From an uncultured Bacteroidaceae bacterium (GTDB taxonomy: Bacteria; Bacteroidota; Bacteroidia; Bacteroidales; GCA-2748055): a stretch of 64,000 bases of DNA. Positions 22,101 to 51,795 of the stretch are shown here, piece by piece; position 1 is the stretch's first letter; each line of letters opens with the position of its first letter. A program made the position numbers and the translations under genes. The stretch is from contig CAZGTU010000001.1 in assembly GCA_964528675.1 (NCBI GenBank), positions 12,679-76,678 on the forward strand. Direction: 5' to 3'. A model generated the notes under the pieces. The model ran no database searches. It was not told where the DNA came from and was given only the letters and a program-made list of their open reading frames with translations.

Positions 22101-22106
22101 ATACCC

Positions 22107-26075: not shown

Positions 26076-26119
26076 TTTTTTTGCTTTATAATCATTATTT
26101 GTGTTATCAATAAAATCCC

Positions 26120-26911: not shown

Positions 26912-26933
26912 TGATTTTTAATAATTCTTCTAC

Positions 26934-28811: not shown

Positions 28812-28888
28812 GCCCCTCGTTATCACACCTGATTCTCAGTTGACAGTTCTCCAGGGGCGATTAAACGATTATACCATTAAACGATGAG

Positions 28889-28914
28889 CCCACTCCGAAA
28901 AATGATTATTATGG
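28889..28914 (-). repeat. Dispersed core motif, copy d (reverse orientation): CCATAATAATCATTTTTCGGAGTGGG
   Basis: The plus strand reads CCCACTCCGAAAAATGATTATTATGG. It is preceded by a TTAAACGAT stutter, as in copy a, and lies about 80 nt after the PPK2 stop. Confidence 0.55.
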
Positions 28915-29524
28915 TATTTCGTCTTTAACACCCCCCGGTCCGCCTAGGCGGAGGAGTCGCAAAGGATTAATTAACAACTTAGCAAAGTCCTCTTTAGAGC
29001 CTGTCCCGATTTATCGGAAGATTTTTGACCGGTTCAGATGAATGAAATCGACACAATACTTTTATTCGCACCATGCTAAAATTGAAATCCATTTATGGAC
29101 ATCCATACTGGAAATTGTAGAGCTAAATCATTTTTTTTTCTGCGATTCGGAGCAATTTGCCCACTTTTACTTTATTAATTACCTTAACAAGAGAGAGGTT
29201 TCTCACCCCCAGGAGCAGAGTGAGAGTGAGAATGAGAGCGAGATTTCCTCAATGAACATTGATTTATTTGGGCGCTTACTTCTAATATTCATGTTTTTTT
29301 TGCCAGAATATTTTGAAGCACCTTCTGTAGGATTGTTCCTATAGGCGCAACAGAGGCATGAAAAATATTTCAACTTTAAAAATTTGTTTGGTTCTGGCTT
29401 GTTCAGTTTAGGCTGTAAATGTCTTGATTAGATTCAAATCATTATAAGCTTACATGGCTGTTTTTATGCAACTTACTAAAATTTGTTATATGAGAGTGTA
29501 CAACTAATGGGTGATCTTCAGGCC

Positions 29525-29672
29525 CAATGGTCCACCTCCATGGTCCATCGTCCATCCCCGTCACTAAAGTCGCTTCCATCGCTTACGTCCCTTACGTCGC
29601 TTCCATCGCCCATATCGCTCTCTCCATGGTCTATGGTCCATCCCATCCCCCATCATCCCACCTCAATCTCTT
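29525..29672. repeat. Stutter island (C-rich on the plus strand, G-rich on the minus strand) overlapping the 3' end of the GH95 gene
   Basis: Repeated short words: CCATGGTCCA/CCATGGTCTATGGTCCA, GTCGCTTCCATCGC x2, TTACGTC x2 and CCCATCCC runs. Shares CTCCATGGTCTAT(T)GTCCAT with the island at 40312-40345 (opposite strand). Confidence 0.6.
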
Positions 29673-32048
29673 AACCCCCTTCACTTCCGTCTCAAATGAC
29701 TTAACATCCTTCTGGTATCTTATGGTGCATGGAAGGCCGGCCCTGGAAAAAACCTCTACCTTATCAAGCTTACCATCGCTCCATGCAATATTCAGGATGA
29801 AATCTCCTCTTGCCTTTATACCCTTTACTTCACCATCTTTCCATGAGGAAGGGATTGCAGGAAGAATTTCAATTTCTTCACCATGGCTTTGCACTAACAT
29901 CTCAGCAATACCGGCTGTTCCTCCAAAATTTCCATCGATCTGGAAAGGTGGGTGAGTATCAAAAAGGTTGGGAAGGGTTGAAATCTGCAGCAGTTTTGTC
30001 AGATGATTGTATGCCTCTTCACCATTTTTCAAACGTGCATAAAAATTAACCGTCCATGCACGGCTCCAGCCGGTTCCCGCTCCACCATGGCGAAGTCTTT
30101 TTTCAATTGTTCTTTCTGCAGCTTCAAATAATAGCGGAGTTTCTTCTGTAATAACAGTTCCCGGATGCAAGGCCAGCAGATGAGATATATGCCTGTGCCC
30201 CGGTTCAAATTCCTCGTAATCATGAATCCATTCCTGAATTGTACCATCAGCACCAATCTGTATCGGTGGAAGTCTGCCAAGCGTTTTCTCTATTTCTTCC
30301 CTGAGACCGGTATCATTACCCAGTATATCAAGAGCCTCCAGGTTGTATTTGAATAATTCCCTTATGATCATGATATCCATTGTTGGAGCATAAGTGAGCT
30401 GCATGGGGCCACCGGTATCCGGATCCTTAAAAGCATTTTCGGGAGAATAAGAAGGTGATGTTACAAGATAAGCTTCCGGACTTTCAATAAGAAAATCCAG
30501 TATAAATTCAGTAGCTCCTCTCATTAAGGGCCAGGCTTCATTTCTCAGATATGCAGTATCCCGGCTGAATTCAAAATGACGCCACACCGGTAGACAAACC
30601 CATGCAGCAGCTATGGGAAACATTCCCCACTTCACCGATGCATTCAGGGCAGTAAAACCAAAAGGATCTGTAACATGATGAATGGTCCAGCCACCGGCAT
30701 CATACATTTTCGCGGCAGTTACCCTGCCCGGTTGTTTAAGCTCATTAAAAAACTCAACATAAGGTTTGAAAGTTTCCGGCAAATTACAAACCTCAGCAGG
30801 CCAGTAGTTCATTTGTAAATTTATGTTGGTATGGAAATCGGAATCCCAAGGAGCATTAAAATGATGGTTCCAGATGCCCTGAAGATTCGCAGGAAGCCGG
30901 GCAAAAAACCCTGAGCTTCCCATAAGCAGATAACGTCCATACTGAAAATACAAAGCCATAAGGTCGTCATCTGTCACTCCGCCTTTCACTCTTTCCAGCC
31001 TTTTGTCAGTTGGAATTGAATCCATAGCCATATCACCCAGATCAATACTCATTCTTTCAAATACCGGACGATGCCGGTCAATATGTCTTTCCTCCAGTTC
31101 TTCGTAATTATCAGAAGGTAAGCTACCGAGCAATTTCATGCAAAGCTGAAGGGGTTCAATAGATCGGTCAAAATTTAAGAAATCCCGGTTATAATCGGTA
31201 AAGGCTGTCAGTGCCAGGGTAAGCTCTCCTGCATTCCTGATTTCAAAATATTTCCCATTTGCCTCATATTCTCCATCAGTATTCAACACCTTCAAAACCG
31301 AAGCAAAACGCATATGCTCACCACCAGGGCCTCTTTCAGCATCGGGTTGATCAATTATCTGTCCCTGCATGACAAGATGTCCCTCTTCACCGGGAAAGGT
31401 CTCCGCATCCTTCTCCCTTTCCATATAAATTTTCAAGCTCAGATCTTTTTTATCTTCTTTCTTTAAATGAATAATGATCACATTGTCTTTTGCGGAAGCG
31501 AATACTTTTCTGGAATATATATTTTCACCGGATCTGTACTGTACATTACTGATCCCCCTGTTCAAACTGAGTTCTCGCTTATACGCAGATACTGCTTTGG
31601 GCTCGTTTAGATCTTCGATAATAATATTCCCAAATATCTGATAAGAACGTATTCTCGGAGGTGTGCCAAGAAGATATTTTTCTGCCAGTTCATAGGCTTC
31701 ATTATTTTTGCCTTCGAAAAGAAGTCTTCGGATTTCGGGCAAATAGGTAAGAGCTTCAGGATTATTGGCATCCTTTTGCGAACCGGCCCATAGACTTTCT
31801 TCATTAAACTGAATGGTATCCATCTTGATGTTCCCGAATACCATAGCTCCCAGCCTTCCGTTTCCTACAGGAAGAGCTGTAACCCAGCCATCTGCAGGCT
31901 GTTTATACCACAACCTCCGCCCGGGGTTATCGCTATTCTTGCCAAACCGGGGATTATTGCATGAAACTAAAAAAAAGAACAGGGAGAAAATTATAAAATG
32001 TTTTCCCGGAAAGGTTTTTTCAAGGGAGAAGGACTTTGAATGTATCAT
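29631..32048 (-). CDS. Glycoside hydrolase family 95 (alpha-L-fucosidase / alpha-L-galactosidase)
   Basis: 805 aa with a signal/lipobox. N-terminal LWYKQPA..W..ALPVGNGRLGAMVFG...E.IQFNEESLW signature of GH95, and size typical of the family. The last ~14 codons run into the stutter island. Confidence 0.85.
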   Translation of the reverse strand: MIHSKSFSLEKTFPGKHFIIFSLFFFLVSCNNPRFGKNSDNPGRRLWYKQPADGWVTALPVGNGRLGAMVFGNIKMDTIQFNEESLWAGSQKDANNPEALTYLPEIRRLLFEGKNNEAYELAEKYLLGTPPRIRSYQIFGNIIIEDLNEPKAVSAYKRELSLNRGISNVQYRSGENIYSRKVFASAKDNVIIIHLKKEDKKDLSLKIYMEREKDAETFPGEEGHLVMQGQIIDQPDAERGPGGEHMRFASVLKVLNTDGEYEANGKYFEIRNAGELTLALTAFTDYNRDFLNFDRSIEPLQLCMKLLGSLPSDNYEELEERHIDRHRPVFERMSIDLGDMAMDSIPTDKRLERVKGGVTDDDLMALYFQYGRYLLMGSSGFFARLPANLQGIWNHHFNAPWDSDFHTNINLQMNYWPAEVCNLPETFKPYVEFFNELKQPGRVTAAKMYDAGGWTIHHVTDPFGFTALNASVKWGMFPIAAAWVCLPVWRHFEFSRDTAYLRNEAWPLMRGATEFILDFLIESPEAYLVTSPSYSPENAFKDPDTGGPMQLTYAPTMDIMIIRELFKYNLEALDILGNDTGLREEIEKTLGRLPPIQIGADGTIQEWIHDYEEFEPGHRHISHLLALHPGTVITEETPLLFEAAERTIEKRLRHGGAGTGWSRAWTVNFYARLKNGEEAYNHLTKLLQISTLPNLFDTHPPFQIDGNFGGTAGIAEMLVQSHGEEIEILPAIPSSWKDGEVKGIKARGDFILNIAWSDGKLDKVEVFSRAGLPCTIRYQKDVKSFETEVKGVKRLRWDDGGWDGP

Positions 32049-32097
32049 TGGAGAAGGGTTTTAAATATTTTTCAAATATAAGATGATGATTGAAAAC

Positions 32098-33231
32098 TCA
32101 AAACTTTATCCTCAACCTCACCTCTCTTTCTTCTCCTGCATCAAGAGTCTCTTCACCGGGAACACTCTCATCTGTATTCCCATCGTGATCAAGTGAACCT
32201 GAACCAATCTCAATCCCAATGCCGTCCCAGTTTTTCTCCAGCAATGATTTTCCATTCTTCAGAATAAACTCATCCGATCCGGCTCCACCACAGCAGGACC
32301 ATGTCTGGAAATATGGCGTTGGTGGAACAAAAAGCTCAATATCCCTGCCATCAGGATGTTTTATTATCACCTTATATTCTTCCTTACCATTAGTTTTTAC
32401 TTTTTTAACTTCTTTATGGATAATTCCGGTTTCTTCTCTTCTACCGGGTCGTGTAGAAGGTAACCACACTTCGGGTTCTTTCCCAATCACACCATTACCC
32501 CTGAGCTGTCTTTTTTCCGATTCAACAATAATTTCTGATCCCGGCTCAGGGAAGAAAGTGATATGATATCCCCAATCGGGAAGTATTTCTTCACCCGAAA
32601 TGTTTTTGAATGAATCGATTACCTCCAACTCCGGTTCTTTTGCAATATTCAATTCAAATGATTTCCGGATCCGGTAAAGGGGAGTTCCATTCTCGTACCA
32701 TGGTTGTGGATCCGCTTGCTTCATCTCCCGGTAAATATATTCAGTACTTATCTTAATCTTATCATCAAAAATTTCAAGCTGAACTTCATCAACTGGTATA
32801 TTCGATGTTTCACCGTGAAGTGGATATATCCTGCCCGTTCTCTCTTCCTGGTAAGGCATTCCCCAATTCTTCATTCCATAAAACTCAATTCCGGCAGCAA
32901 AAGTTGGTATATACGCAAATCCCGGGGAGGGTACATTATTGATCATTACCTCTTCAGACCACAGATCAAGTTCTTCCGGATCAGGCAGATCGTAGGGAGC
33001 ATCCCAGAAGAGTTTTTTCCCTTTATAGATAATCTGCCCGAGTGAAAGCCCTTTTGAGGGTAAAAATTCAGCTTTAACATTATTTTTTTCAACCAGAAGT
33101 CTGTTCACTCCTTCTGGTTCTTCATCTTTATGATATAATGTAATTCTAAGACCAGATTCATCTGCAAGGGTTTTCACTCCATCGATCTTCTGCTTGCATT
33201 GAATTTTAAAGCTATTTGTTCCTGTTTTCAT
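32098..33231 (-). CDS. Hypothetical protein, possibly aldose-epimerase-like (DUF4432-like)
   Basis: 377 aa with no signal peptide. The assignment is only a weak by-eye resemblance. Embedded in the glycan operon. Confidence 0.3.
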   Translation of the reverse strand: MKTGTNSFKIQCKQKIDGVKTLADESGLRITLYHKDEEPEGVNRLLVEKNNVKAEFLPSKGLSLGQIIYKGKKLFWDAPYDLPDPEELDLWSEEVMINNVPSPGFAYIPTFAAGIEFYGMKNWGMPYQEERTGRIYPLHGETSNIPVDEVQLEIFDDKIKISTEYIYREMKQADPQPWYENGTPLYRIRKSFELNIAKEPELEVIDSFKNISGEEILPDWGYHITFFPEPGSEIIVESEKRQLRGNGVIGKEPEVWLPSTRPGRREETGIIHKEVKKVKTNGKEEYKVIIKHPDGRDIELFVPPTPYFQTWSCCGGAGSDEFILKNGKSLLEKNWDGIGIEIGSGSLDHDGNTDESVPGEETLDAGEEREVRLRIKF

Positions 33232-33748
33232 GCTCTGAATTTTCGGGATATATTTTTTCAGGCAGATTCCTCCTTTTGGGTCTTTCGATCAATTCTATGG
33301 TAGTCCCGATAAGGTCTTCGGTATCGAGATAAGCATAATGACCGTCATCATCCGGACCAAAGCCTGCCCCATCCTGGGTCATTTCGATACCAGCTTCCTC
33401 AGCTTCTTTAAGAGATTGCTCCATATTGTCAGTAAGCACTCCAAGATGATGAACACCATAACCATGTTTCTCAACGAACTCTTTATACACTGTATCACCC
33501 TCAAGGGGTTCGATGAGTTCAATCCGCATATTACCGATATAAGATAGTGCTACTTTCATTTTATAATCATGTGGTTTGCCTTTCCTTGTCATTCTTTTGA
33601 CCAGGGGCTTGCCATAGGTGTAAAAATGCCAGGGCCCTACACCGAATCTTTCCCAGTAAGTTTCTACAGCTTTCTCAATATCCGGCACTATAATACAGAT
33701 CTGTGCGATATCAGGAAGCGGAAATTTCTTTTTGTTTTTCTTTTTCAT
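33212..33748 (-). CDS. VOC (glyoxalase/bleomycin-resistance/epimerase-fold) family protein
   Basis: 178 aa. Contains IAQICIIVPDIEKAVETY and HGYGVHHLG, typical of VOC/methylmalonyl-CoA-epimerase-like proteins. Confidence 0.7.
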   Translation of the reverse strand: MKKKNKKKFPLPDIAQICIIVPDIEKAVETYWERFGVGPWHFYTYGKPLVKRMTRKGKPHDYKMKVALSYIGNMRIELIEPLEGDTVYKEFVEKHGYGVHHLGVLTDNMEQSLKEAEEAGIEMTQDGAGFGPDDDGHYAYLDTEDLIGTTIELIERPKRRNLPEKIYPENSEHENRNK

Positions 33749-33799
33749 ACTTTTTCTTTTTTATTAGCCCCGTTTAATCAAGTGCAAAAATTCAATTCT

Positions 33800-35287
33800 C
33801 TATAAGTCCCCCGGCGTACCCAGAGCCAAAGTTTCGGAATCCAGAACCAGCATCCAGTCATTATCCAGACCTGAAGTCGGAGGAGTAAAGCTCTGTATTC
33901 GTTCTGTTATCTCTTCTGTTGGCAGGGCCTCTCCATTTCTCGGATTAAACCACCAGCCTACAACAACATCATCATCAATCTTGTCCGTGTAAACGGTCAC
34001 TTCCTGGCCTTTTGCGATATAAACCAGCAGGAATGTACCATCTTCAGCTCTTGCTGCACGAATGTGATCCTCATTCCGTGGATTCACTCCATAAACAATC
34101 GATTGATCGGGAATCAATTTTGAAAATAAACGGGTTTCAAAAAGTGCTCTTACATGTCTCATATCATCTGCTCCCGGACGGTCTAAAGATTCCTTCCAGT
34201 CGTAGAGTGCCGGAATGGCAAAACTTTCACCTTTCTCATACATTTGCCATATAGCATTGTTTCCGTAGGTATAGCCACAGGCACCCGAAAGCAGATTCCA
34301 GTACGCATGGATTCTCAGATCATAACCGGTGAAAAAACCTTTTTCAAAGTGCGACCTGTCTTTTACCAGGAATGAAGAATCAAGAACGCCCTCCGGAACC
34401 CTCATTGGATCGGACCAGTCGAGGTATTCCCAGAACCTCACAGGAATATCCTCGTACGCAGGTTCACCATCTATATATGGTTTTACAGGATTCAGGAGAT
34501 AGCAGGTCTTTGCATAGCGGTATACCTCATTAAATCTTTTCTCATGTCCGCTCTGATACATATTAAAGTCCAGCCAGGGCTCATTATGATACCAGTAATA
34601 AGACATACTCCCGCCCCTCGGATGATAACTGATAAGATTTAATCCTTTATCCCCCTCGGTGATTCCTTTTGCCATCGATTGCCAGATCTCAAAAACAGTA
34701 TCATTGGTTACCTGCCTGTCTCCTCCAAGTATCCAGATGACCGGCTTATCTGCATATCGCTCACCGAGAAATTTACCGTAGATCTCTGCATTCTCGGGAG
34801 TGAAGATAACTCCTTCTCCTCCATGTTCTGCGGTTACTTTATCTCCCCATGTAGGAAGCATGCCAATAAACAAGCCCAGTTCTTCGGCCTTATTTACTAT
34901 ATAATCGACATGTTCAAAGTATTTTTCGTTGGGTTTGGCTGGATCCCTGCCAATGAGTGGAAGGTCGCCATAAGCATTACCTGTAGTCAATCCCTGCATT
35001 TCAGCAAGAACAACAGCCTGGATAACCGTAAATCCTTTTTCCGCCCTGTTTTTGAGGTAATGATCGGCTTCCTCACGACTTAGTTTATGAAAAAGTTCCC
35101 AGGCAGTATCGCCAAGATACAGGAATGGAGTGCCATCAGGTTTTTGAAGGTATCTCCCATTTTTGCTTACCATCAGTGATGCATCTGTATCGGTTCTCTG
35201 AGTGGCGCTGCATGAGATTAACAACATTAAGAGAACAAGGGAAATTAACCTGTTCAGCTTCCGGAATTTTTCAATGTGTGTTTTCAT
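33800..35287 (-). CDS. Glycoside hydrolase family 140 (DUF4038) protein with collagenase-type C-terminal binding domain
   Basis: The ORF runs to 35353, but MKTHIEKFRK..LLISCSA at 35287 gives a lipoprotein signal and removes the overlap with the upstream gene. Contains PFLYLGDTAWELFHKL..EADHYL..RAEKGFTVIQ. Confidence 0.8.
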   Translation of the reverse strand: MKTHIEKFRKLNRLISLVLLMLLISCSATQRTDTDASLMVSKNGRYLQKPDGTPFLYLGDTAWELFHKLSREEADHYLKNRAEKGFTVIQAVVLAEMQGLTTGNAYGDLPLIGRDPAKPNEKYFEHVDYIVNKAEELGLFIGMLPTWGDKVTAEHGGEGVIFTPENAEIYGKFLGERYADKPVIWILGGDRQVTNDTVFEIWQSMAKGITEGDKGLNLISYHPRGGSMSYYWYHNEPWLDFNMYQSGHEKRFNEVYRYAKTCYLLNPVKPYIDGEPAYEDIPVRFWEYLDWSDPMRVPEGVLDSSFLVKDRSHFEKGFFTGYDLRIHAYWNLLSGACGYTYGNNAIWQMYEKGESFAIPALYDWKESLDRPGADDMRHVRALFETRLFSKLIPDQSIVYGVNPRNEDHIRAARAEDGTFLLVYIAKGQEVTVYTDKIDDDVVVGWWFNPRNGEALPTEEITERIQSFTPPTSGLDNDWMLVLDSETLALGTPGDL

Positions 35288-35315
35288 AGATTGGATATAG
35301 TTTATTGGATTAAAT

Positions 35316-36368
35316 TCATGGAATAAAAACGACTTTTCTTGCTTTTCCTTCAAGAGCCAGTTTCGCTCCTTTCACAAAATCTTCCAGTGAAAATGTATGT
35401 GATACAAAATTTGATGAAGATATTTTGCCCCTGTCAATCAATTCCAGAGCTTCCTGGTTGTGCCGGTGTGCAAATATGGTTGTCCCAATGAGGTGCAGGG
35501 CATTATAGTGCACCAGGTTCATATCCACTCCGGGTCGTGATCTTTCCTTTGGAAGGCCTCCGAATAAAAGTATCCTTCCACCCTTTCGTGCTATCTCAAC
35601 GGCTTCTACCTGTGTTTCAGGCGCAGGATTTGCTGTAATTATTACTTCAGGACCATAGCCGCCAGTGAGTTTCAATACTTTTTCTTTAAGATCTTCTTTC
35701 GAAGAATCGATAATATGATCGGGGGAATAAGATTCAACAAGTTTCAGCCTTTCTCCGGAAATATCGGCAACAATAATTCTATCAGCACTCCTGGACCTTG
35801 CCAGTTCAAGATGAAGTGTACCTATGGGACCTGCACCTATTATCAGTACGGTATCTCCAGACCCAATCCAGCCCTTTTCCTGTGCATTAACACAGGATGA
35901 CAGCGGCTCCACAATGGTGACGGACTCATGATTTAATCCTTCCGGAACTTTCTGAATTGTTCCCCTCTCAATAACCTCTCCCGGAATTGCCATATATTCT
36001 GCAAATCCTCCCTGCCATTTCTGTCCGATTTCTTTATAATCTATACATAATTCTTCTTTCCCTTCAATGCAGAACTCGCACTTTCCACAAAAAACAAGAG
36101 GCGAAACAGCCAGCCTATCACCCGGCTTCCATGATCCTGTATATTCTTTCCCTGTAATTTTTATCTCTGCACAAATTTCATGACCGATAATAAAAGGCAG
36201 TTCAACCCTGTGATGTCCGTTTCTCAATGTCCGGAGATCAGATCCGCACAAACCGCAGGCCAGCACTTTTAATAAAATTCCATCTGCCGGACATTGGGGC
36301 ACCGCTACCTCCTGGACATTAAAATCTCCGGGAGCATGAACAATTGCAGCTTTCATTGTATCTTTCAT
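35316..36368 (-). CDS. Zinc-dependent medium-chain alcohol/polyol dehydrogenase
   Basis: 350 aa. Contains CGLCGSDL, GHEICAE, the structural Zn cluster CGKCEFCIEGKEELC and GAGPIG (Rossmann fold). Confidence 0.85.
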   Translation of the reverse strand: MKDTMKAAIVHAPGDFNVQEVAVPQCPADGILLKVLACGLCGSDLRTLRNGHHRVELPFIIGHEICAEIKITGKEYTGSWKPGDRLAVSPLVFCGKCEFCIEGKEELCIDYKEIGQKWQGGFAEYMAIPGEVIERGTIQKVPEGLNHESVTIVEPLSSCVNAQEKGWIGSGDTVLIIGAGPIGTLHLELARSRSADRIIVADISGERLKLVESYSPDHIIDSSKEDLKEKVLKLTGGYGPEVIITANPAPETQVEAVEIARKGGRILLFGGLPKERSRPGVDMNLVHYNALHLIGTTIFAHRHNQEALELIDRGKISSSNFVSHTFSLEDFVKGAKLALEGKARKVVFIP

Positions 36369-37654
36369 GGATGCAATAATTTATCCTGTTCCTGTCTTAA
36401 TTTATATATGAATGTACCGGTATCAGGATCACACTTTTCGTAGGTAATTAATTCCCCTTTCCTGATATCACTCTTTACCGTGCAGTTTTCAGCCAGCCCA
36501 ACAGGGACGGCACCGAGTTTTCCCGATTCTTCATAAGTGTATATTCTTCCGAAAATATCCCCGCTTCCAATCCCTCTCAGTTTTTCACCCGCAGCAATGT
36601 CACGTTTGGCAATGGTCACTACTTCGGAATGCATATCCTCAGCGGCAACAGTTACCTCATTCAGCAAAACAGCCTCGGCAATAGACTGGGGTGTTTCAAG
36701 ATCACAAAGATGATAGGGACGAAAGAGCAAATAATAAGGCCCATTGGCATGAGTAATAAATTTCATATCCTTCTGGATCCTCTTATCTCCCGAGTAAACA
36801 ATAACAAAAACTCCCGGGGCAATTTTCCCGGTAGTATAATCTACAGTTCCACGATGTTTAAATATTCCTCCATTAACAGAAGGCTTGTACACTTTCAGCA
36901 ATTCATCGAGTTCTATCTTAGGTCCGTGCATTCCCGGAACATCCGGTATTAGTCCTGTAGCATTTGACACAGCCGCCATTTCCACCATGGTTTTCGTTCC
37001 ATCCTTGAAAGATACGAGAATCTTTGGATTCATGTCTTTCGAATGTGCCTCATCCCAGCAGCTTTCCGGAGTAGCATCATAATCAATGGGGTTATTCTTA
37101 CCTTTCCCTATGCAAACTACTTCAAATCCCATGAGTACAGCCTGCTCATAAAGCATTTTGCATACACCCGGCTCATCTCCGGAGGCTACCGTATAAAGAG
37201 TTCCGTTTTTCCTTGCTGTCCTGCTCAGGTAAGTGCCAATTGTAATGTCGGTTTCCACATTCAGCATTATTATGGGTTTCTTAAGCTGAATAGATTCCCA
37301 TGCTACACGTGCACCGATATCAGGGATACCCGTTACCTCGATATTTGCTTCAACAGGATCAAGAAGTGTCATCATCAGCGCATCTTCAGTAACAAGAGCT
37401 TTACCTTTATTCATCGCATCAATAGCCTCAGAAGCTTTATTGATCACTGATATTTGATTCCTTTCCCAGCCCATATCCAGGAAAGTGGAAATAGCTTTCT
37501 GTGGCTCAACATCAGCAATAGCACTGACCTTCATGCCCTTTATGTTATTAATTGTATGGGCAAGGCCTGATCCCATTTGTCCGCAACCAATAATCCCGAC
37601 ACTTACAGGCTTTCCTGATGCTTCACGTTCATACAGCTTTCTTAGTAATTCCAT
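36365..37654 (-). CDS. NAD(P)-binding oxidoreductase with C-terminal SAF domain (COG4091-like predicted dehydrogenase)
   Basis: 429 aa. N-terminal GIIGCGQMG Rossmann fold and a C-terminal SAF-like segment (AKRDIAAGEKL). Its stop overlaps the next gene's start by 4 nt. Confidence 0.55.
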   Translation of the reverse strand: MELLRKLYEREASGKPVSVGIIGCGQMGSGLAHTINNIKGMKVSAIADVEPQKAISTFLDMGWERNQISVINKASEAIDAMNKGKALVTEDALMMTLLDPVEANIEVTGIPDIGARVAWESIQLKKPIIMLNVETDITIGTYLSRTARKNGTLYTVASGDEPGVCKMLYEQAVLMGFEVVCIGKGKNNPIDYDATPESCWDEAHSKDMNPKILVSFKDGTKTMVEMAAVSNATGLIPDVPGMHGPKIELDELLKVYKPSVNGGIFKHRGTVDYTTGKIAPGVFVIVYSGDKRIQKDMKFITHANGPYYLLFRPYHLCDLETPQSIAEAVLLNEVTVAAEDMHSEVVTIAKRDIAAGEKLRGIGSGDIFGRIYTYEESGKLGAVPVGLAENCTVKSDIRKGELITYEKCDPDTGTFIYKLRQEQDKLLHP

Positions 37655-37665
37655 TTATTTATGCA

Positions 37666-39216
37666 TTAAAATGAATATTTATTCCTTAGCTCAGCCAGCT
37701 TTTCATAATCCTCTTTAACATGATGATAGAGTTCCTTATAAAGCTTGAAATAATCCATGTATAAATCATGATTCTTCTTGTCTGGTTCCATTGGGTCGAT
37801 ATAGTTAGTCCATTCTTTAGCAACAGAAAAATCATTAAATACACCTGTAGCAACACCTGCCAGAATTGCATCTCCGAAAGGAGCTCCTGTACGTCTTTCT
37901 ACCAGCACAGTAGGAATATTGAAAACATCCGTTATTATTCTTCTCCAAAGTTTGCTTTTAGCTCCTCCTTCATTCAATACAATAGGTCCGCTGATCTTTT
38001 TCCCCGTTTTCATAAGGATGTTGAAAGAATCGAAAAGTGCAAAAGCCACCGATTCCATCATTGCCCGGATAACATGCCCGCGGGAATGGTCAAGAGAAAG
38101 GCCGAAAATTGCACCACGGGCATTCACATCCCAGATGGGTGTTCTTTCTCCCATTAGAAAAGGCAAAACTACTAATCCATTACTTCCCGGTGGAATAACC
38201 TCCGCCTCCTGATTTATGATATCGAAAGTATCCACACCCATCACTCCGGAAGCTCCCATCTCCATCTTATAAAAGTTATCGCGCATATACCGGATCAACT
38301 GTCCCCCGGTGGTTGTTGTCGGAACAATGATATAGGTATTCTCAGAATCGGTGGTATAGGCAAAATTGATCATGGTTTCCGAAAAATTCGTGTCCCGGGT
38401 CAGAATGCCGAAATTACCACATGTTCCAAGGTTCATCTGCATATCCCCTTCGCCAGTCATACCAGCCCCCATCCAACCGGCATTGCAATCAACCTGGCCT
38501 GCTGCAACAGGTGTCCCTTCCGACAGGCCGGTTTCTGCTGAAGCCCTCTCAGTAACTGTCCCTATCACATCCTCGCAACGGAAAAGATCAGGAAATAAGG
38601 ATACATCAAGTCCGACTTCATCCAGCAGATCTGTGTCAAATTTTCTTTCCAGCAGGTTGTAGGCAACCCCGTAGAAAGCTGCCCCTGAATAATGACAGGT
38701 AGCTTTTCCGGTTAATTTAGCATTTATAAAGCCGTCAATAGTAAGGGCCTTGAATATCTGTTTGAAATCCCCTGCCCGGTTTTCTTTCTCCCACAACAAA
38801 TTGGTAATGATAGGATGATCCTCAAGTCTGTTTTTTGATATTTTAAAAATCCTTTCTTCTCCTATGTTCTCTTTCAGCCACTTTACCTGTTCAGTAGCTC
38901 TTTTATCCATCAGGTTATAGGCATTATGAACCGGTCTGAAGTTTTCATCTACCAGAACAAGAGAGGGCAATGCGGATGAAACTGCCATACCTTTTATGGT
39001 ATTGGGTTCCACCCCTGCATCATTTATCGCTTTTTTAATAAGCCTGCAAGCCACAGACCAGTAGTTCTCCGGATCATGTTCTGACCATCCGGGATGTGGG
39101 GTAAGAATTGGATATTCCTCAAAAGCATAGCTGAGTTCTTCTCCGCGAGAATTAATTATAACGCATTTGGCTCCGCCGGTTCCATAATCCAATCCAAGTA
39201 AACAGGCTTTATTCAT
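37666..39216 (-). CDS. FGGY-family carbohydrate kinase (xylulokinase-like)
   Basis: 516 aa. [14 protein letters not shown]-terminal phosphate-1 motif and GGGAKS-like C-terminal motif ([10 protein letters not shown]). Confidence 0.85.
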
Positions 39217-39221
39217 GGTTA

Positions 39222-40163
39222 TCAGTTTTCGTTAAGTAGTTTCTGAGCAGTTATATTATCGGTAATGAGTACGTTTACAAGATTGGCTTTTGCCACTGCC
39301 CTGAGGACTTCATATTTCTCATCTCCTCCGGCTATTCCGATTATTCTTGGTATTGCCCTGAGCTCTTGCGAGCTAATCCCAACTACTCTGTCATCGAGCG
39401 GAGTTGAAATGAACTCTCCCTTCCTATTAAAAAACCTGAGCGAAATATCACCCACGGCCCCGGCTTTTTTAATCTGATTGAATTCTTCAGCACTTAAAAT
39501 ATTATTATCCCTTATAAGCTGGGAATCTTTATCAAACAAACCAATTCCCACAACAGCAATATCGGCATTCACAGCCATATTCAAGGTATCCTTCACCTGT
39601 ATGTCATTTTTCAGCTCCTTGCAAATCCCTGAAGTTTTCACTATTCCCGGTGAATGGATCAGCCAGGGCCTGGTTCCAAAGTTTTGGGCCATCCGGCGTG
39701 TAAGATCTGCACCATGGTAACCGGACTGAGGCTGACCGAGTCCGCCAAGCATTTGCACCACTTTAAGATCCGGATAATTCTGCACCGGCAAATTATCCAC
39801 AAGGCTCAATAAAGAACGCCCCCATGTAAGACCGATGATTTCATTCCCGGTGATAACTGACCTAAGGTACTCTGCTGCTTCAAAACCGGCTCTGCTAATC
39901 CAATTATCTGTATTATGATCCGGATTTTCAACAATAATAAGCTCATTCAATTGATATTTTTCTTCCAGTTCATGCTCCAGTTCAATATAAGGATTATCAG
40001 GTTCAACAATCTTTATCTGAACGATCTTCTCCTTTTGCGCTTTTGCGAGCAAACGGGAAACTTTGATCCTGGATATTCCATAACGATTGGCAATAGCCTG
40101 CTGCGTCATACCTTTCTCGTAATAAGCCCTTGCAACTTTATAAATAAGACTGTCAGAATTCAT
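39222..40163 (-). CDS. SorC/DeoR-type sugar-binding transcriptional regulator
   Basis: 313 aa. N-terminal HTH ([21 protein letters not shown]) plus a sugar-binding domain (GLTWGRS..., AVVGIG). First gene of the minus-strand operon. Confidence 0.85.
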
Positions 40164-40241
40164 TTGATCATTTGTTCGGTTTTGTTCATTTGAACATTCT
40201 TAGACAAATCTATGGGATATTATTTAGAAAAGCAAGGGGGG

Positions 40242-40311
40242 AAGAGGTAAGAAGTAAGAGGTAAGAGGTAAGAAGTAAGAAGTAAGAAGTAAGAAGTAAG
40301 GGGTAAGGGGT
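40242..40311. repeat. Tandem array of ten 7-nt units (AAGRRGT)
   Basis: Reads aagaggt aagaagt aagaggt aagaggt aagaagt aagaagt aagaagt aagaagt aaggggt aaggggt, head to tail. Lies 79-148 nt upstream of the SorC-regulator ATG at 40163 (minus strand). Confidence 0.9.
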
Positions 40312-40430
40312 GAGCATAGACCATGGACAATAGACCATGGAGGGAGGAGGTGAACAGTGAAGAGCCCTTCAACTGTCGCTCAGCGACCGGGTAGGAGTAA
40401 ACGGTGAAGGGTGAACAGTGAAGGGTAAAC
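40312..40430. repeat. Stutter island continuing from the heptamer array
   Basis: ATAGACCATGGA x2 (period 14), GGTGAACAGTGAAG x2 (40348 and 40408) and GTGAAGGGT words. C-poor on the plus strand. Confidence 0.6.
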
Positions 40431-41082
40431 AATCAAGGCATTCATAGCCAAATGAAGTAACTACCCCCCGGCCCCTAAAAGGCATACGTGTCAACTTAAG
40501 CACAAACATTATGCGCAAGCGTAAGGTTTTGACCGCCGGTAACCGACGCGAAAGCCAGTACAATGGTAAGCGGGAACAATTCTCCTGTTACCCTCTCCGG
40601 GTGATACGGCCCCGCCGTGGCGGACTTTTATCTAACTACTTTCTGTAAATCCTTTATATATTTCAGACAATTTTATCCGTTTTGGTTCAGTATTATGTTT
40701 CAATACTTTAATCAGCTTTAATTCTAATCAGCTTTAATTCTTCCAAATCGTGCAAAATCCCCAAAGCCTTCCTGTTGGTTAACTCTATAAGTATCGTGTT
40801 TTTCATGGGTCTATTCATTTAACGTGCAACAAGCTTTGAATTTTTGTTTTAGCGATATACGCATCTATTAAAGAATAGTACAATTTTTTTATCTTCTGTT
40901 TAAACGTTTTTGCACATTTTTAGTCAAAAACAATCTATGAAAGTATGCTAATCCTTTAGGAATTACTAGTGTTTAATATCCATCCCGAAGCAAATTCAGC
41001 GAATTCTCCAAAAAAATATCCAATATACCCACCTTAGATCCACTAAATTTCATAAATTTATACAAATCAAATACTTCCACTC

Positions 41083-41622
41083 ATGAAAACCACAATTTGG
41101 ACAGGCATTTTAGTTTTCATCGGATGGGCAATCTTCAGCAATTACTGGTATGTGTGTAAAATCAAAGATCTTTGTGGAGATGAGCTTACCGCCGTCACCG
41201 CAATGGATGAATCCAGCACCCTGCCAGATACGACTGCTGAACAACGCAGAGCTGAAGAAGAGGCAGAAAAAGAAGCCGCCCTTATCCGTTCCATTGAACA
41301 AACCGTCATTTACTTTGCTTTCGATTCATCCTATGTGCTGAATCAAAGTCAGCTCAGTAATCTTACCCGCGAAGTAAACACTCTCTCTCCCGGACTTGTC
41401 GTACTGGAAGGTCACTGTTGCAATATTGGCACAGAAACCTATAATATGGAACTGGGACAGCGAAGAGCCGACCGTGTTAGAAGAGCTCTCGTTGATCAGG
41501 GAATATCTCCGCAAAACATCTCCACCATTTCTTACGGTGAAGAACAACCTGCAATTCCCAATACCAGTGAGGAAAACCGTGAAAAAAACCGAAGGGTTGA
41601 AATCATCATTAAAGAAAAATAA
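41083..41622 (+). CDS. OmpA-family peptidoglycan-binding protein with N-terminal membrane anchor
   Basis: 179 aa with one N-terminal TM helix. The C-terminal OmpA_C-like domain ends in NRRVEI. Confidence 0.8.
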   Translation: MKTTIWTGILVFIGWAIFSNYWYVCKIKDLCGDELTAVTAMDESSTLPDTTAEQRRAEEEAEKEAALIRSIEQTVIYFAFDSSYVLNQSQLSNLTREVNTLSPGLVVLEGHCCNIGTETYNMELGQRRADRVRRALVDQGISPQNISTISYGEEQPAIPNTSEENREKNRRVEIIIKEK

Positions 41623-41627
41623 ATACC

Positions 41628-42266
41628 ATGGAAAAATTAAGCGCCATTTTTCAGATCTCAATTTTGTTAATTGTTGCATTTCTTATCGGAATAGTAATGA
41701 CATGGGTGTATTGGCGGATAAAATACCGGAAGTTAAAAGATGAAACCGAACAGAAAGCAAAGGAACAGGAAAGACTCCGCATGGAATTGCAGCAAAGCAT
41801 CGATCAACTTAGCACCGATAACAGGGAATTAAAAGAAGAGCTGGAAGAAGTCAGAGATAAGAATATTCTTCTTATGAAGGAATATGTCCCCAGTAAGCTT
41901 TATACCACCATAGTAAAAAATATGGGTGAAGGTGTCTCTGTAAGCGATGAAAACGGTTTCTTCCTGGTGTATAATCCTAAGCTTGAACAAATAACAGGTT
42001 TTACTCGCGAGGAGGCTAATAAACATAAAGACAAAATCTTCCTGAATTCAATCTATCCCGATGATGATATCCGGCAAAAAGTAGCAGAGGATATAGAAAA
42101 TATATCTGAGGCACAGGAGCATACTAATATTAAAACCACCATCACAACAAAGGACAACAAAAAAGTTCCTGTGCTTGTTACATCAACAGTGGTGAGCTAT
42201 TACGGCAAAAAGTATTATTTGTCGGTATTCAGAGATGTGTCGGAGGAGCCGAGGGTGGAGGAGTAG
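41628..42266 (+). CDS. Membrane-anchored coiled-coil / PAS domain protein
   Basis: 212 aa. N-terminal TM helix, a charged coiled coil and a C-terminal PAS-like fold (GEGVSVSDENGFFLVYNPKLEQITGFTREE). No output domain. The last codons enter a G-rich stutter island. Confidence 0.65.
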   Translation: MEKLSAIFQISILLIVAFLIGIVMTWVYWRIKYRKLKDETEQKAKEQERLRMELQQSIDQLSTDNRELKEELEEVRDKNILLMKEYVPSKLYTTIVKNMGEGVSVSDENGFFLVYNPKLEQITGFTREEANKHKDKIFLNSIYPDDDIRQKVAEDIENISEAQEHTNIKTTITTKDNKKVPVLVTSTVVSYYGKKYYLSVFRDVSEEPRVEE

Positions 42267-42425
42267 GATGATGTGGTGGGATAATGAGGGAATGGGAGTA
42301 GAGCCGATTATAGCAACCGGTCATCGAGCGGTGGTTGGTGAGCGGAGTCGAACTAAGTCGAGATGGGAGAATGTGGTAGGAGAATGTGGGGAGAGAACTT
42401 GGGGGGATGATTATAACAGTAGTTA
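42240..42425. repeat. Stutter island (G/A/T-rich, C-poor on the plus strand) starting inside the last codons of the PAS gene
   Basis: Repeated words GGAGGAG, GAGCGG, GTCGA and GGAGAATGTGG x2, plus several GGG tracts. Confidence 0.55.
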
Positions 42426-42445
42426 TTAACTAAATAATTAACATT

Positions 42446-44136: not shown

Positions 44137-44241
44137 AGAATCAGTGGAACCATAAAATCATTAATGGTTGTTGACTATATAAATAATGTTCTTACTGATT
44201 TAAAAGAGATACACCGAATTAAAAACGGCTGGCTGAATTAG
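44137..44241 (+). pseudogene. 3'-terminal relic of a paralogue of the 2H-phosphoesterase-like gene at 48233-48754
   Basis: Translates to ..ISGTIKSLMVVDYINNVLTDLKEIHRIKNGWLN*. The DNA is clearly alignable to 48690-48754 (..IAGSIESLMVVDYTDDVLTDIKEVQLN*). No upstream remainder is present. Confidence 0.55.
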
Positions 44242-47984: not shown

Positions 47985-48023
47985 ATTATAGGCATTTTAT
48001 GAGAGATACACTTATCAGAGAAA

Positions 48024-48173
48024 ATGTCTATCTTTGAAAAAAGCACAGTAAAAATGAATAAAAGACTGGTCCTTAACCGAATAAAAAAAGCTATCCACGA
48101 AAAAGATCCCTGTACGAATACATATTTATTTGGTTCAAGAGCAAGGGGTGATAATCGTCCGGATTCAGATTGA
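48024..48173 (+). pseudogene. Truncated minimal nucleotidyltransferase (MNT-like) fragment
   Basis: A 49-codon ORF, MSIFEKSTVKMNKRLVLNRIKKAIHEKDPCTNTYLFGSRARGDNRPDSD*. It ends with TGA inside the GS-x9-DxD active-site motif. Confidence 0.5.
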
Positions 48174-48232
48174 AAGATAAGGCATATTTTCCAAAGAATT
48201 ACCTAAATCAGTTATACCATTAAATGTAAACC

Positions 48233-48754
48233 ATGGCATTAGCAGTATGCGCATATCCTCAAATGAAAAATGAAGATTACTCTGATATACAAAGTTTTCG
48301 AAAAGAGCATGATGGATACTATTCAATAGTAAAACCTCATTTCTCATTCGTCTTCCCCCTTGAAGGGATCGAACAAAATGAGTTTATTGAAGAAATAGTG
48401 CAAAAGTCAGATGGTTTTGAAAAGATCGATTTTGAAATCTGATGTGCAACGGTAAATAAGGATGCTATTCTGGATATATATCATTTGTTATTAGTTCCCG
48501 ATAAAGGATATAGCAATATTGTTAAACTTCACGATAAACTATACAGCGATAAATTATTTAATCACCTGAGGCTGGACATTGATTTTATTCCCCATATGGG
48601 CATTGCAAATTCACGGGGTAAATATAAGCTTAAAAAATGGGCTGATGAATGGAACGCTAAGGATTTTTTAATCGCAGGAAGCATCGAATCATTGATGGTG
48701 GTGGATTATACAGATGATGTTCTTACTGATATCAAAGAGGTGCAGTTGAATTAA
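48233..48754 (+). pseudogene. 2H-phosphoesterase (LigT/2'-5' RNA ligase-like) superfamily gene with one in-frame TGA (48440-48442)
   Basis: ORFs 48233-48442 and 48485-48754 share a frame and read through as ..KIDFEI*CATVNKDAILDIYHLLLVPDKGY.. Two H-x-S/G-x motifs are present (PHFSFVF and PHMGIA). Confidence 0.5.
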
Positions 48755-49012
48755 CAAGAATTCTGTCAAATAAATTCAATCCAATACACAGGTCCTAACA
48801 ATACGATAATATCCTTAAATGATTTTTCAAATGCTGTAAACAATTTAATCTTAAAGGATTTAAATAAGGAATCCAAGGAATAAAGTTTATCCTAAGATCC
48901 TTATAGAAAATCTATTGACTGCGGATTGAATTTTAAATTAGCTCAGCCATCAAGCTTTCTTTATAAATATCCAGGGAAAATTTCATAACATAGTTATTTC
49001 CGAAAATTTCAA

Positions 49013-49200
49013 TCTACTTTGACAGATTGGATGAATAAGTGGATTTATATCCGATAATACCTGGATTACTGAATTTCGTTGAAGCTTAGGTGCAAAGGGT
49101 GAATGGAAAAACTCTTATTGCTTTATTAAAGGGAATTAGGGGAAAATCAAAAAATTAGCTTTAATTCCAGGTCAATTAAAAAAATAAAAAGTCAAATGTT
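49013..49200. mobile_element. Diverged second copy of the MITE-like element (inverted relative to 19165-19342)
   Basis: Begins TCTACTTTGACAGATT, as does the reverse complement of 19165-19342. Shares GATTT(T/A)TATCC, GAAGCTT(T)AG..GCA..AAGGGTGAA.GGA.AAAA.TCT and ATTA(A/G)GGG blocks. The right end is degenerate (AGTCAAATGTT). Confidence 0.35.
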
Positions 49201-49324
49201 TTTCATATCAAATCACATTAAAAATGATAAAAAAATAATACTTTTTTCTTTGTGTGTTATTTATTTGTTTTATATTTGCCTAAACACTGTTAATAACAGT
49301 TATTAAACTATTAAACAACTACCT

Positions 49325-50996: not shown

Positions 50997-51065
50997 AATT
51001 AAATCATTACTTTTTTTAAATAAACAAGCTGAATAAGCCAACATATTGCAGTAAAACTTTTACAA

Positions 51066-51530
51066 ATGAAAAGAATTTGTCCAATTCTTATTCATTTATT
51101 AATGCACAGGAAGTAAAGCAATATGGCCCACCCATTGACTTTACAACGGTCCATTGAGGATCTCTGAAAACAGAAGGTTTCTTCTGCATGAAAATGGGAC
51201 TCCTTTTTTCTATCAGGGAGACACCTCCTAGGAATTGTTTCACCGGCTCAATCGTGAGGATGCAGAACAATACATCGAAAACCGCCGGGAAAAAGGATTC
51301 ACTTTTACCCAGGCATTCGCACTCGCAGAATTGAATGGCCTTAATGACCCAAATCCATATCGAGAAAAACCACTTTTCGATAATGATCCCACCAAACCCA
51401 ATGAAAAATATTGGGAGCATGTCGAGTGGGTCATAAAAAAAGCGGAAGAAAAGGGCCTAAAATTTTTACTCCGGAGAATACATTTCTTTATGGAAGATGG
51501 ATTGGAAAACCCTTTCGTTGCCATAGCTGG
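51066..51530 (+). pseudogene. GH140 (DUF4038) pseudogene: degenerate signal peptide, TGG->TAG in the GDTAWE motif, internal deletion and frameshift
   Basis: The frame containing 51139-51480 reads [52 protein letters not shown]...[24 protein letters not shown]. This parallels 33800-35287, with TAG at 51229-51231. The next homologous block ([15 protein letters not shown]) is in another frame. Confidence 0.7.
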
Positions 51531-51773
51531 TGGAATACCGCCTACCCTGTATTTGAAACACAGCCCTTCCTGGCTCAGCTCGAACAGTTCGCCCTTACCG
51601 ACCAGGGATCTCACCAGTTCGATGTGGTGCGCTACCTGTTTGGTGAAGCGGAAACGATCTATTCACAAATACAAACCGTTAACCCCACGATTAAAGGGGA
51701 AGATGTGGCTACCAGCCTGATCCGTATGAAAAACGGGGTGGTCGTAACCCAGGAAAGAACAAACAACCCATAA
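51531..51773 (+). pseudogene. C-terminal fragment of a Gfo/Idh/MocA-type oxidoreductase fused behind the GH140 relic
   Basis: Reads [25 protein letters not shown]....[17 protein letters not shown], which resembles the C-terminal dimerisation domain of the family. No N-terminal Rossmann part is present. Confidence 0.4.
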
Positions 51774-51795
51774 GGAATCCAATTTACCCGACACT

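Follow-up and report, generated by a model that had tools for sequence, protein, structure and literature searches.

The DNA analysed here is a 64-kb window (the whole stretch, 64,000 nt) of contig CAZGTU010000001.1 from an uncultured Bacteroidaceae bacterium, and its G+C content is 39%. Several gene boundaries in this window carry islands in which short words are repeated head to tail. The type locus of these islands lies between divergent genes, upstream of a SorC/DeoR-type regulator gene (39222-40163, minus strand). A reading of the DNA made from sequence only had listed five such stretches (75-200, 29205-29250, 29525-29672, 40242-40430, and 42240-42425). All five exist, and their words were found by Tandem Repeats Finder, with which the arrays and repeat words were called. 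Short-word redundancy was scored against local-composition shuffles. Labels such as L016, L149, and L153 denote loci or contigs of relatives or metagenomes that were compared with the window; the relatives' genomes are named as Bacteroidota, Bacteroidales, or Bacteroidaceae metagenome-assembled genomes (MAGs).

The type locus

The spacer upstream of the regulator gene contains several different units, namely two heptamer families and 14-nt units, arranged as follows.

40242-40311, plus strand: heptamer array of 10 units (AAGAGGT / AAGAAGT / AAGGGGT), called by Tandem Repeats Finder at period 7 with 92-94% matches
40316-40346, plus strand: module M1, formed by the 14-nt units ATAGACCATGGACA and ATAGACCATGGAGG and then GAG, common to the island at the end of the GH95 gene, where it is inverted
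40363-40403, plus strand: 41-nt C-containing core within the heptamer field, read from the sequence
40404-40431, plus strand: second heptamer array (GTGAAGG GTGAACA GTGAAGG GTAAACA), called by Tandem Repeats Finder at periods 7 and 14 over 40397-40431
40533-40574, plus strand: G+C-rich segment homologous to a 40-nt mini-element of L016, the single window match against 0.00 expected

The AAGAGGT array begins 79 nt upstream of the regulator start codon, on the non-coding strand of the regulator. It is C-free and sits within an 81-nt C-free run (40234-40314). The M1 units that follow have the form ATAGACCATGGA(CA/GG). The words GTGAACA GTGAAG occupy the left side of the core (40350-40362), so that the core is flanked on both sides by GTGAAG (40357-40362 and 40404-40409). 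Within the core, the flanking word recurs in inverted form (ACAGTGAAG / CTTCAACTGT), and there is also a small palindrome, GTCGC-TCA-GCGAC. The DNA fold of the core is not significant (z = -1.2). The core may represent an insertion. The C-containing cores of both the type locus and the island at the PAS gene end are flanked by 6-7-nt direct repeats, and the insertion status of these cores is uncertain because such repeats are expected inside tandem arrays anyway. The segment at 40533-40574, about 100 nt past the second array, carries the motif GACGCGAAAGCCAGTACAATGG and shares the motif GACGCGAARGCCAGYRCAATGG with the L016 insert; it shows no significant RNA fold and no Rfam match.

Two further features lie between the islands and the regulator gene. 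Directly upstream of the regulator start, at 40160-40198, are direct repeats TCATTTGA / TCATTTGT, which L149 conserves and which can still be recognised in L005 and L150. They are probably the operator of the regulator and not a part of the island. The minus-strand sequence TAGATTTG at 40205-40212 is what we take to be a candidate Bacteroidetes -7 box.

Other islands in the window

The remaining islands and stutters of the window are the following.

29526-29672, minus strand (sense): GH95-end island, with redundancy above all shuffles
42267-42425, plus strand: PAS-end island of G/A/T-rich stutters (GATG.., GGGAAT.., GAGAATGTGGKAG x2.4), from the sequence and Tandem Repeats Finder
78-208, no strand assigned: ALDH-end island, from Tandem Repeats Finder and the redundancy scan
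28858-28904, no strand assigned: CGATTAAA x3.5 stutter, then a reverse-strand copy of a 23-nt core (CATTTTTCGGAGTGG), from Tandem Repeats Finder and repeat pairing
29213-29243, plus strand: weak stutter (GAGAGT / 12-mer) in mid-spacer between PPK2 and GH95 (Tandem Repeats Finder score 40-41)
15099-15121, plus strand: third copy of the 23-nt core GGATAATTGACTTTTCRGAGTGG (two full matches against 0.00 expected)

The GH95-end island reads, on its sense strand, as GGGATGR words that encode the last ~10 residues, M1 together with the stop codon, AGCGAC-NNN 9-mers, and M1-like words GGACGATGGACCATGGAGGTGGACC. The stop codon (29631-29633) falls within a CCATGG module, and Tandem Repeats Finder reports TCCATCG x2.9 and a 9-mer x4.4 at 29537-29609. 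The PAS-end island starts immediately after the PAS stop codon (42264-42266). It contains a 13-mer x2.4 at 42367-42397 and a 64-nt C-containing core at 42299-42362, and the spacer as a whole (42267-42445) has only 16 C against 65 G in 179 nt. The ALDH-end island begins with ATTTGTGTYC x3.7 (78-117, G>C on the plus strand), continues into the core GGATAATTGACTTTTCGGAGTGG (117-139), and ends in ATCAACCCTTAAACT words (150-208) that are G-free on the plus strand and G-rich on the ALDH sense strand. The ATCAACCCTTAAACT 15-mer occurs twice at 165-194, and the ALDH stop codon (181-183) lies within the second copy.

The stutter at 28858-28904 is located 47-93 nt past the PPK2 stop codon. The one at 29213-29243 is not above shuffles, and its membership among the islands is doubtful. 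The 23-nt core GGATAATTGACTTTTCRGAGTGG has three copies in the window, at 117-139(+), 15099-15121(+), and 28882-28904(-), where 0.00 are expected. Each copy lies 34-93 nt beyond a stop codon, in either orientation, and two of the three are embedded in stutters; the copy at 15099-15121, which is 34 nt past the stop of the gene at 12849-15065, has no flanking stutter. The core itself gave no fold and no match to a known element.

All islands are found between open reading frames (ORFs) or overlap last codons only. The contacts with the gene ends of ALDH, GH95, and PAS that had been noted are all correct as judged by the stop-codon positions, and the association of islands with gene boundaries is borne out.

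Sequence reality, redundancy, and strand asymmetry

The islands are real sequence and not assembly artefacts. The window proteins match Logan assemblies of runs SRR15425350-55. Four runs provided five short-read Logan contigs that are 100% matches to the window and end at 29580, 29591, 40276, and 42342, in or beside islands; one of them terminates inside the heptamer array at 40242-40311. Since these contigs match perfectly and then end there, the island sequence must be both real and repetitive enough to break de Bruijn assemblies.

The repeats are direct and head to tail, with periods of 7, 9, 10, 13, and 15, and they are longer than chance at three islands. In the redundancy scan, only 136-228, 29522-29661, and 40219-40359 scored above all local-composition shuffles. 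By this measure, the proposed grammar of repeated words is weak at 29205-29250 and 42240-42425. The accompanying description of one strand as nearly devoid of C needs similar narrowing. It is apt for the 81-nt C-free run of the type locus, which is beyond every shuffle, and marginally so for a 53-nt run at 42251-42303. It does not fit 29525-29672, which is skewed and not depleted (65 C / 19 G), or 75-200, where the polarity flips across the central core. As for G-free runs, those of the islands are matched in length elsewhere in the window and in shuffles.

Much of the strand asymmetry is a trivial consequence of the amplification of one short word. A selection filter may add to it. No stop codon contains a C, and so a reading frame invaded by an island would be closed immediately where the sense strand is C-poor. 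Every frame of the G-rich strand holds stop codons in the type-locus and GH95-end islands, as does every frame of the sense strand in the ALDH-end island; in the PAS-end island the G-rich strand has them in two of three frames. The GH95 island has an open frame of 142 codons on its C-rich strand. As for polarity, the G-rich strand is the coding strand at 0 nt from the stop for ALDH, GH95, and PAS, which is a small sample, and it is the non-coding strand upstream of the ORF at the type locus and at an array near the OmpA gene of L153.

Could the islands be structured RNAs, genes, or known signals? Rfam 15 gave nothing at the gathering threshold in the window, and in the two large spacers it gave only chance-level matches (E >= 1.6). 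Structured RNA was rejected on this ground and because neither the cores nor 40440-40640, folded as RNA and as DNA, did better than shuffles; for the heptamer array the folding energy is 0 kcal/mol. No tRNA or tmRNA is present in the window. Coding repeats and small peptides were also set aside, as a period of 7 cannot be divided into whole codons and no frame of the G-rich strand at the type locus is free of stops. A canonical G-quadruplex (G4) motif, defined as four G3+ tracts with loops up to 12 nt, is absent from the window and from L016, L019, L021, L023, and L149; L153 alone has two. No intrinsic terminator (a G+C-rich hairpin with a T run) was found in or beside the GH95-end or PAS-end islands, and searches for intrinsic terminators or sigma-70 promoters returned nothing above shuffle expectation. 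A CRISPR array would need ~24-48-nt repeats with unique spacers, and the islands consist of 7-15-nt units placed head to tail without spacers. Finally, terminal inverted repeats bound no island, and a common leader or tail is likewise missing. Flanks are unrelated from island to island, and the two large spacers share only chance 8-9-mers beyond M1.

Modules shared between islands and a 40-nt mini-element

As had been proposed, the islands are related to each other and not independent. The shared block CTCCATGGTCYATNGTCCAT on which this proposal relied is real. It has three copies in the window, at 29536-29555(+), 29622-29641(+), and 40323-40342(-), against 0.08 expected; the sequence-only reading listed two of these three copies, a few bases off. 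The longer inverted pair of M1 (29618-29641 / 40323-40346) extends over 24 nt at 92%. Further evidence of relatedness comes from the module ATAGACCATGGAGRGAG, which is present at two window loci and in the relative L016, and from AGCGAC-NNN words that recur in the GH95 and PAS islands of different genomes.

The L016 island contains, at 3036-3075, a 40-nt insert GCCTGCCCGCCGACGCGAAGGCCAGCGCAATGGCAGGGGG that is G+C-rich, has the ends CCTGCC/GGCAGG, and is flanked on both sides by GGACGAT. Removal of the insert and one GGACGAT leaves GACCATGGACGATAGACCATGGAGGGAG, which matches the type-locus M1 at 27/28 positions. The L016 piece appears to bear the signature of at least one insertion with a 7-bp target duplication, with the proviso that the compared sites are paralogous. 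A target duplication with an empty site is seen for this piece only and not for whole islands. The segment at 40533-40574 of the window is a diverged copy of this mini-element. At 19162-19345 the window also has an element of nested palindromes, in which outer inverted repeats of 22 nt (91%) enclose perfect inner pairs (15 and 16 nt). The element has a G+C-rich centre (ACGCGGAAGGGCCAGCGCAAAAAGG) similar to the 40-nt mini-element, and it looks like a MITE (MITEs being miniature inverted-repeat transposable elements).

Related words also occur outside of the relatives. A metagenome scan with (AGCGAYNNN)x4, judged to be a poor choice of query, gave 120 matches, mostly coding Ser-Asp-X repeats; comparable non-coding arrays were found only in L036, L125, and perhaps L026 and L056. 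In L125, an unrelated low-G+C metagenome contig, a AGCGACTTT-type 9-mer array (1277-1403) begins 4 nt after a stop codon, and a like 9-mer array, inverted, follows ~100 nt later (1503-1563). L036 has a 376-nt array of the same type of words. AGCGACTTT-type words are thus not confined to the clade of the window. Scans of viral contigs with the core and with M1 gave no matches.

The same boundaries in relatives

In relatives, islands occur at the same gene boundaries as in the window, with very different content. At the GH95 end of L016, whose GH95 is 95% identical, the sequence is identical up to GGGATGATGGGGGATGGG and is then followed by a rearranged island. This island is ~360 nt long (16 + 9 AGCGAC-NNN units, M1 words, and the 40-nt insert) versus ~150 nt in the window. 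The C-terminal residues of GH95 are encoded by the island and differ between the two (...GGWDGP* versus ...GGWGMEAT*), and more distant homologues end otherwise. Variants of the 9-mer alternate in higher-order blocks of period 18, which is typical of minisatellite dynamics. A test of whether adjacent units are more alike than distant ones was not significant because of this alternation.

At the type locus, L149 (regulator 94% identical) has 17 heptamers versus 10 in the window, while the adjoining unique DNA is ~94% identical. A scan of a genome collection of species representatives with the regulator protein found only one relative, L005 (60% identity), and it has no island.

The PAS end offers the longest series. 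L153 (93%) retains only the right-hand ~45 nt and lacks ~100 nt (42268-42367). In relatives at 89%, the place is taken by an unrelated G-rich island that includes GACTTTAGCGACG words. Of these relatives, L023/L024 and L019/L020, which are 99.7% identical over 3 kb, differ by one clean 27-nt indel composed of a 20-nt repeat and a 7-nt spacer. A relative at 79% has a different G/T-rich stutter into which the stop codon has moved, and at 55-56% identity no island is present. In other words, orthologous PAS-end islands of five lineages at 100/93/89/79% identity keep their position and turn over their content fully. About 70 nt upstream of OmpA, L153 also has a heptamer array, which lacks G on the plus strand (reverse complement GGGGATT / AGGGATT).

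A different arrangement is seen in L145. At 14547-15107 this contig has a perfect 280-nt tandem duplication whose start is formed by the final codons and stop of an SDR-family gene and which comprises a G+C-rich imperfect palindrome and a G-poor TTTATAAAC stutter. Its sense strand after the stop is C-rich, a polarity opposite to that of the window islands.

A strain-specific 12.2-kb segment

Homology of this part of the window to L019/L020 (~87% nucleotide identity) is limited to 20368-28806 and 41009-42267, and it halts at the PPK2 and PAS stop codons. Window positions 28807-41008 (12.2 kb) stand in place of 396 nt in these relatives, in which PPK2 directly precedes OmpA-PAS. The segment holds three spacer stutters, a minus-strand sugar operon from GH95 to the regulator, and the type locus. 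The two M1-bearing islands lie just inside both ends of the segment in inverted orientation, with their G-rich strands pointing outward. Because homology ends at the PPK2 and PAS stops and islands flank the replaced segment, the islands mark breakpoints of gene-content variation. In a 68% relative, L150, the operon is found in a different neighbourhood without islands.

The genes of the segment, all on the minus strand, are GH95, DUF4432, glyoxalase-family, apiosidase-like, zinc alcohol dehydrogenase (ADH), DRL_cat, FGGY kinase, and SorC-type regulator. The segment is missing from L019, L020, L021, and L023, whose 396-nt spacer looks, by eye, like a degraded gene fragment. In L149 (94% relative, 1152-1577), the regulator is followed by a C-terminal fragment of the apiosidase in place of the FGGY kinase, DRL_cat, and ADH genes, which means that the operon has been rearranged between close relatives. 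A Pfam scan of 20 window ORFs, which included most island neighbours, found no transposase, integrase, or RAYT-like gene, RAYT denoting REP-associated tyrosine transposases (REP, repetitive extragenic palindrome).

Several other observations concern the surroundings of the segment. A family-X DNA polymerase (HHH_8 ... DNA_pol_B_thumb-PHP) that is a single 573-residue gene in L019 and L020 appears in the window as two ORFs (20379-20849 and 20955-22100), and the split is either a pseudogene or an assembly frameshift. Just upstream of it, ~150 nt at 20218-20367 have no counterpart in L019. Downstream of PAS, the 3' end of a 2',5'-RNA-ligase-like gene occurs in two diverged copies (77%; 44139-44213 and 48670-48744), and long "intergenic" stretches at 47985-49324 (1.3 kb) and 50997-51795 (0.8 kb) are full of ORF fragments. 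The sequence of this variable region suggests decaying genes.

Origin of the islands

How do such islands form? The explanation that we consider rather probable is that they are compound, hypermutable assemblages of simple sequence repeats (SSRs) driven by slippage and recombination at gene boundaries. Seed words in unconstrained DNA just outside ORFs would be amplified and contracted by replication slippage and unequal recombination. Mutated units would be re-amplified, often as multi-unit blocks, giving several related words per island, and each island would inherit its composition from its seed word. The units are mostly 7 nt long, but also 9, 10, 13, and 15 nt. Pieces of islands (M1, AGCGAC-NNN words) would be copied between loci, probably by ectopic recombination, and at least one tiny element of 40 nt with a 7-bp target duplication would have inserted into the island of a relative. 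No cellular function would be needed; if transcript 3' ends or promoters were affected, this would be a side effect.

The reality of the islands, their tandem structure, the conservation of position with rapid turnover, the polymorphism in unit number, the sharing between loci, and the lack of RNA, ORF, and MITE signatures are all observed. Slippage may be the motor, recombination may be the spreader, and a cellular function may not be required. The suggestion that islands are footprints of an error-prone copying process, which was one of several roles considered in the sequence-only reading, fits the unit-number polymorphisms between close relatives. The other roles considered there, as 3'-UTR elements, terminators, or binding platforms, gained no support from the analysis of the window.

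Several points weigh against this slippage-based account. Slippage alone fails to explain identical 17-28-nt modules at different loci and on opposite strands; since modules recur in this manner, a dispersal step is needed. At ALDH, GH95, PAS, the type locus, and L153-OmpA (n = 5, p ~0.03-0.06), the G-rich strand has its nearest ORF on the 5' side. This regularity of polarity hints at selection or a directional mechanism over pure neutrality, with L145 as a counter-example. The PAS-stop island is kept down to 79% despite sequence turnover and could therefore have a position-specific function. Moreover, the sequence base was the window and about 100 kb of relatives, which makes the statistics local.

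One alternative is that the islands are functional boundary elements, acting as orientation-dependent transcription insulators or 3'-end elements. The outgoing transcript would be G-rich, C-poor, and unstructured, allowing R-loop formation, G-quadruplex formation, or protein binding, and the incoming transcript would be C-rich, G-poor, and similar to a Rho-loading site. The geometry agrees with this idea, as the G-rich strand is the sense strand at three stop codons and the non-coding strand 79 nt upstream of the regulator and upstream of L153 OmpA. The same geometry was reported genome-wide for G-rich heptamers that are transcribed (Rehm 2015, PMC4692102). The persistence of the post-PAS-stop position down to 79% identity and the lack of a terminator-like site in or beside the GH95-end and PAS-end islands point in the same direction. 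However, orthologous islands lack any conservation of sequence or structure, the 93% relative keeps a 45-nt remnant, and the 55% relatives have no island. Furthermore, the window islands contain no canonical G4 motif and fold no better than shuffles, L145 shows the opposite polarity after a stop codon, and other window genes end with ordinary palindromic hairpin repeats. Taken together, a boundary function seems unlikely.

Another idea is that each island is a non-autonomous mobile element, similar to a MITE with an internal minisatellite, that transposes as a whole in the manner of BrickBuilt. Minisatellite-bearing MITEs of this kind do exist in Bacteroidota (PMC4596501), and modules are common to several loci in both orientations. 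The 40-nt piece of L016, with its CCTGCC/GGCAGG ends, GGACGAT duplication, and 27/28 "empty" paralogous site, appears to favour mobility, as do the 6-7-nt direct repeats around the cores of two window islands. Yet it is the 40-nt piece alone, and not the island, that behaves as an insertion, and direct repeats around cores are expected inside tandem arrays. Words and ends differ from island to island, with no terminal inverted repeats and no common leader or tail, and the window ORFs checked include no transposase or RAYT-like gene. We regard transposition of whole islands as improbable.

An equally improbable alternative is that the islands are repair scars, in other words templated filler from error-prone template-switching synthesis at double-strand breaks during the insertion or exchange of cassettes. 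Their presence at synteny breakpoints would then be causal. Islands do lie at both inner ends of the 12.2-kb segment and at the breakpoint downstream of PAS. Some words also look like the unique sequence next to them: the ALDH tail CTTCAACATAAACT is similar to ATCAACCCTTAAACT, and the 100-nt PAS insert starts with sequence like that which follows it. The type-locus core contains an inverted copy of a neighbouring word. However, the shared M1 modules lie 0.7-0.8 kb from the actual junction (28807 / 41008), and the same words occur in the unrelated metagenome contigs L036 and L125 with no sign of a junction. Unit number still changes between strains of the same gene order, and for this reason ongoing slippage is needed in any case.

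A more speculative possibility, which we hold to be very improbable, is that heptamer arrays are built by tiny embedded mobile pieces. A ~40-nt element with a 7-bp duplication, both copies of which are left on excision, would add one 7-nt unit per cycle. If the element preferred its own target word, the arrays would be self-amplifying, with a unit length equal to the length of the target duplication. Such arrays would also be preferred landing or recombination sites for cassettes such as the 12.2-kb operon flanked by inverted M1. If true, this would explain the heptamer bias of bacterial long SSRs and of the short tandemly repeated repetitive sequences (STRR) of cyanobacteria.

An artefact, whether assembly error in the MAG or random low-complexity sequence, has a negligible chance of being the answer and is refuted for the three strong islands: short-read contigs do break inside islands and two of the five stretches are not above shuffles, but independent assemblies from four runs are in full (100%) agreement until they break, islands are present at the same places in the relatives' assemblies from ENA and NCBI, and the redundancy and the shared block are far beyond shuffles.

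Comparison with known repeat classes

The islands had been said to match no described element class, and this claim fell, as precedents are available in PMC4679880, in PMC4692102, and in the cyanobacterial STRR. Judged on sequence features, the islands belong to a published kind that includes STRR, long SSRs, and heptamer-repeat assemblages, and the class is not new.

Palindromic and mobile repeats are the more distant comparisons. BrickBuilt of Porphyromonas gingivalis (PMC4596501) is likewise an always intergenic, imperfect tandem repeat of Bacteroidota, with 1 to 22.8 repeats per array, that is present at multiple loci and varies between strains. However, it has one 23-nt unit, a conserved leader and tail, and inverted-repeat ends, whereas the islands have many short units and none of these features. 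REPs, bacterial interspersed mosaic elements (BIMEs), and REPINs resemble the islands in being short, mosaic extragenic repeats at gene 3' ends. REPs are palindromic hairpins mobilised by RAYT transposases, unlike the islands, which are non-palindromic tandem arrays. The window also contains a REP-like palindrome family (ACCCTNAGGGTTTAA / AGACCCTNAGGGTTTAA and complement) just downstream of plus-strand genes at 11983-12015, 12727-12780, and 17579-17627, the last member including a perfect 23-nt hairpin. The elements at 11983, 12727, and 17579 are probably ordinary terminator or REP elements of the genome.

STRR are closer. They are 7-bp tandem intergenic repeats with several unit families, they are variable, and they are used for strain fingerprinting. 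The islands agree with them in having heptanucleotide units in non-coding DNA, but the STRR-specific unit families are absent; STRR belong to another phylum and have other unit sequences. STRR are also said often to form hairpins via inverted arrays, whereas the window arrays are unstructured. STRR are dispersed at many loci per genome. Tiny dispersed repeats (SDR) were reportedly found inside heptamer arrays by Elhai et al. 2008.

The G-rich heptamers (GGGAATC / GGGGA(C/T)T) of Xanthomonas and Nostoc are over-represented in non-coding DNA (Rehm 2015, PMC4692102). They occur on the coding strand within 50 bp of or over a stop codon, or on the non-coding strand just upstream of an ORF. They are mostly transcribed and vary extensively in length between Xanthomonas species at the same loci, and no function was assigned to them there (PMC4692102). 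The islands share with them 7-nt tandem units, strand asymmetry, G-richness, a non-coding location, and variability at the same loci in relatives. Every gene-abutting window island and the L153-OmpA array obey the positional rule, although the sample is small, and the L153 array (GGGGATT / AGGGATT) has the Nostoc unit of this class. The Rehm repeats differ in that one unit family is dispersed genome-wide, arrays of four units are preferred, and G4 formation was demonstrated. The window islands have many words with mostly GG and not GGG, mixed with 9-15-nt words and C-containing cores, and with no canonical G4; they lack the four or more G3 tracts of the quadruplex criterion. In addition, the Rehm repeats are under-represented between divergent ORFs, where the type locus lies.

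Intergenic heptamer direct repeats were described in Beggiatoaceae, Cyanobacteria, and five Bacteroidetes by MacGregor 2015, with several different heptamer repeats in one intergenic region, including in Gramella, Aequorivita, and Elizabethkingia (PMC4679880). These repeats are missing from close relatives with the same gene neighbourhood, some contigs end partway through them, and a role in gene rearrangement was suggested (PMC4679880). Mrazek 2007, in the account given there, found heptamers to be the commonest long SSR and attributed them to polymerase slippage (PMC4679880). The islands have the attributes of long SSRs, namely head-to-tail short units (5-11 nt in the definition of that class), intergenic mixed units, and unit-number polymorphism between relatives. 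They also resemble the MacGregor assemblages in their multiple heptamers per intergenic region, absence from relatives, rearranged or horizontally acquired neighbours, and contig ends in repeats. The single word that MacGregor followed, TAACTGA, is found mostly just upstream of start codons, and no repeats of it occur here. The window and its relatives have, in addition, non-heptamer modules shared between loci and the 40-nt insertion, neither of which is described there.

The islands thus reveal neither a new kind of element nor a function. They do have consequences, in that last codons are rewritten, breakpoints of gene content are marked, and short-read assemblies are fragmented. What they add is an extension of a known class of heptamer-dominated, strand-asymmetric tandem arrays close to stop codons and promoters to an uncultured Bacteroidota lineage, together with a series of relatives at 100, 95, 93, 89, and 79% identity that shows the gain and loss of units, blocks, and a 40-nt insert at single loci.

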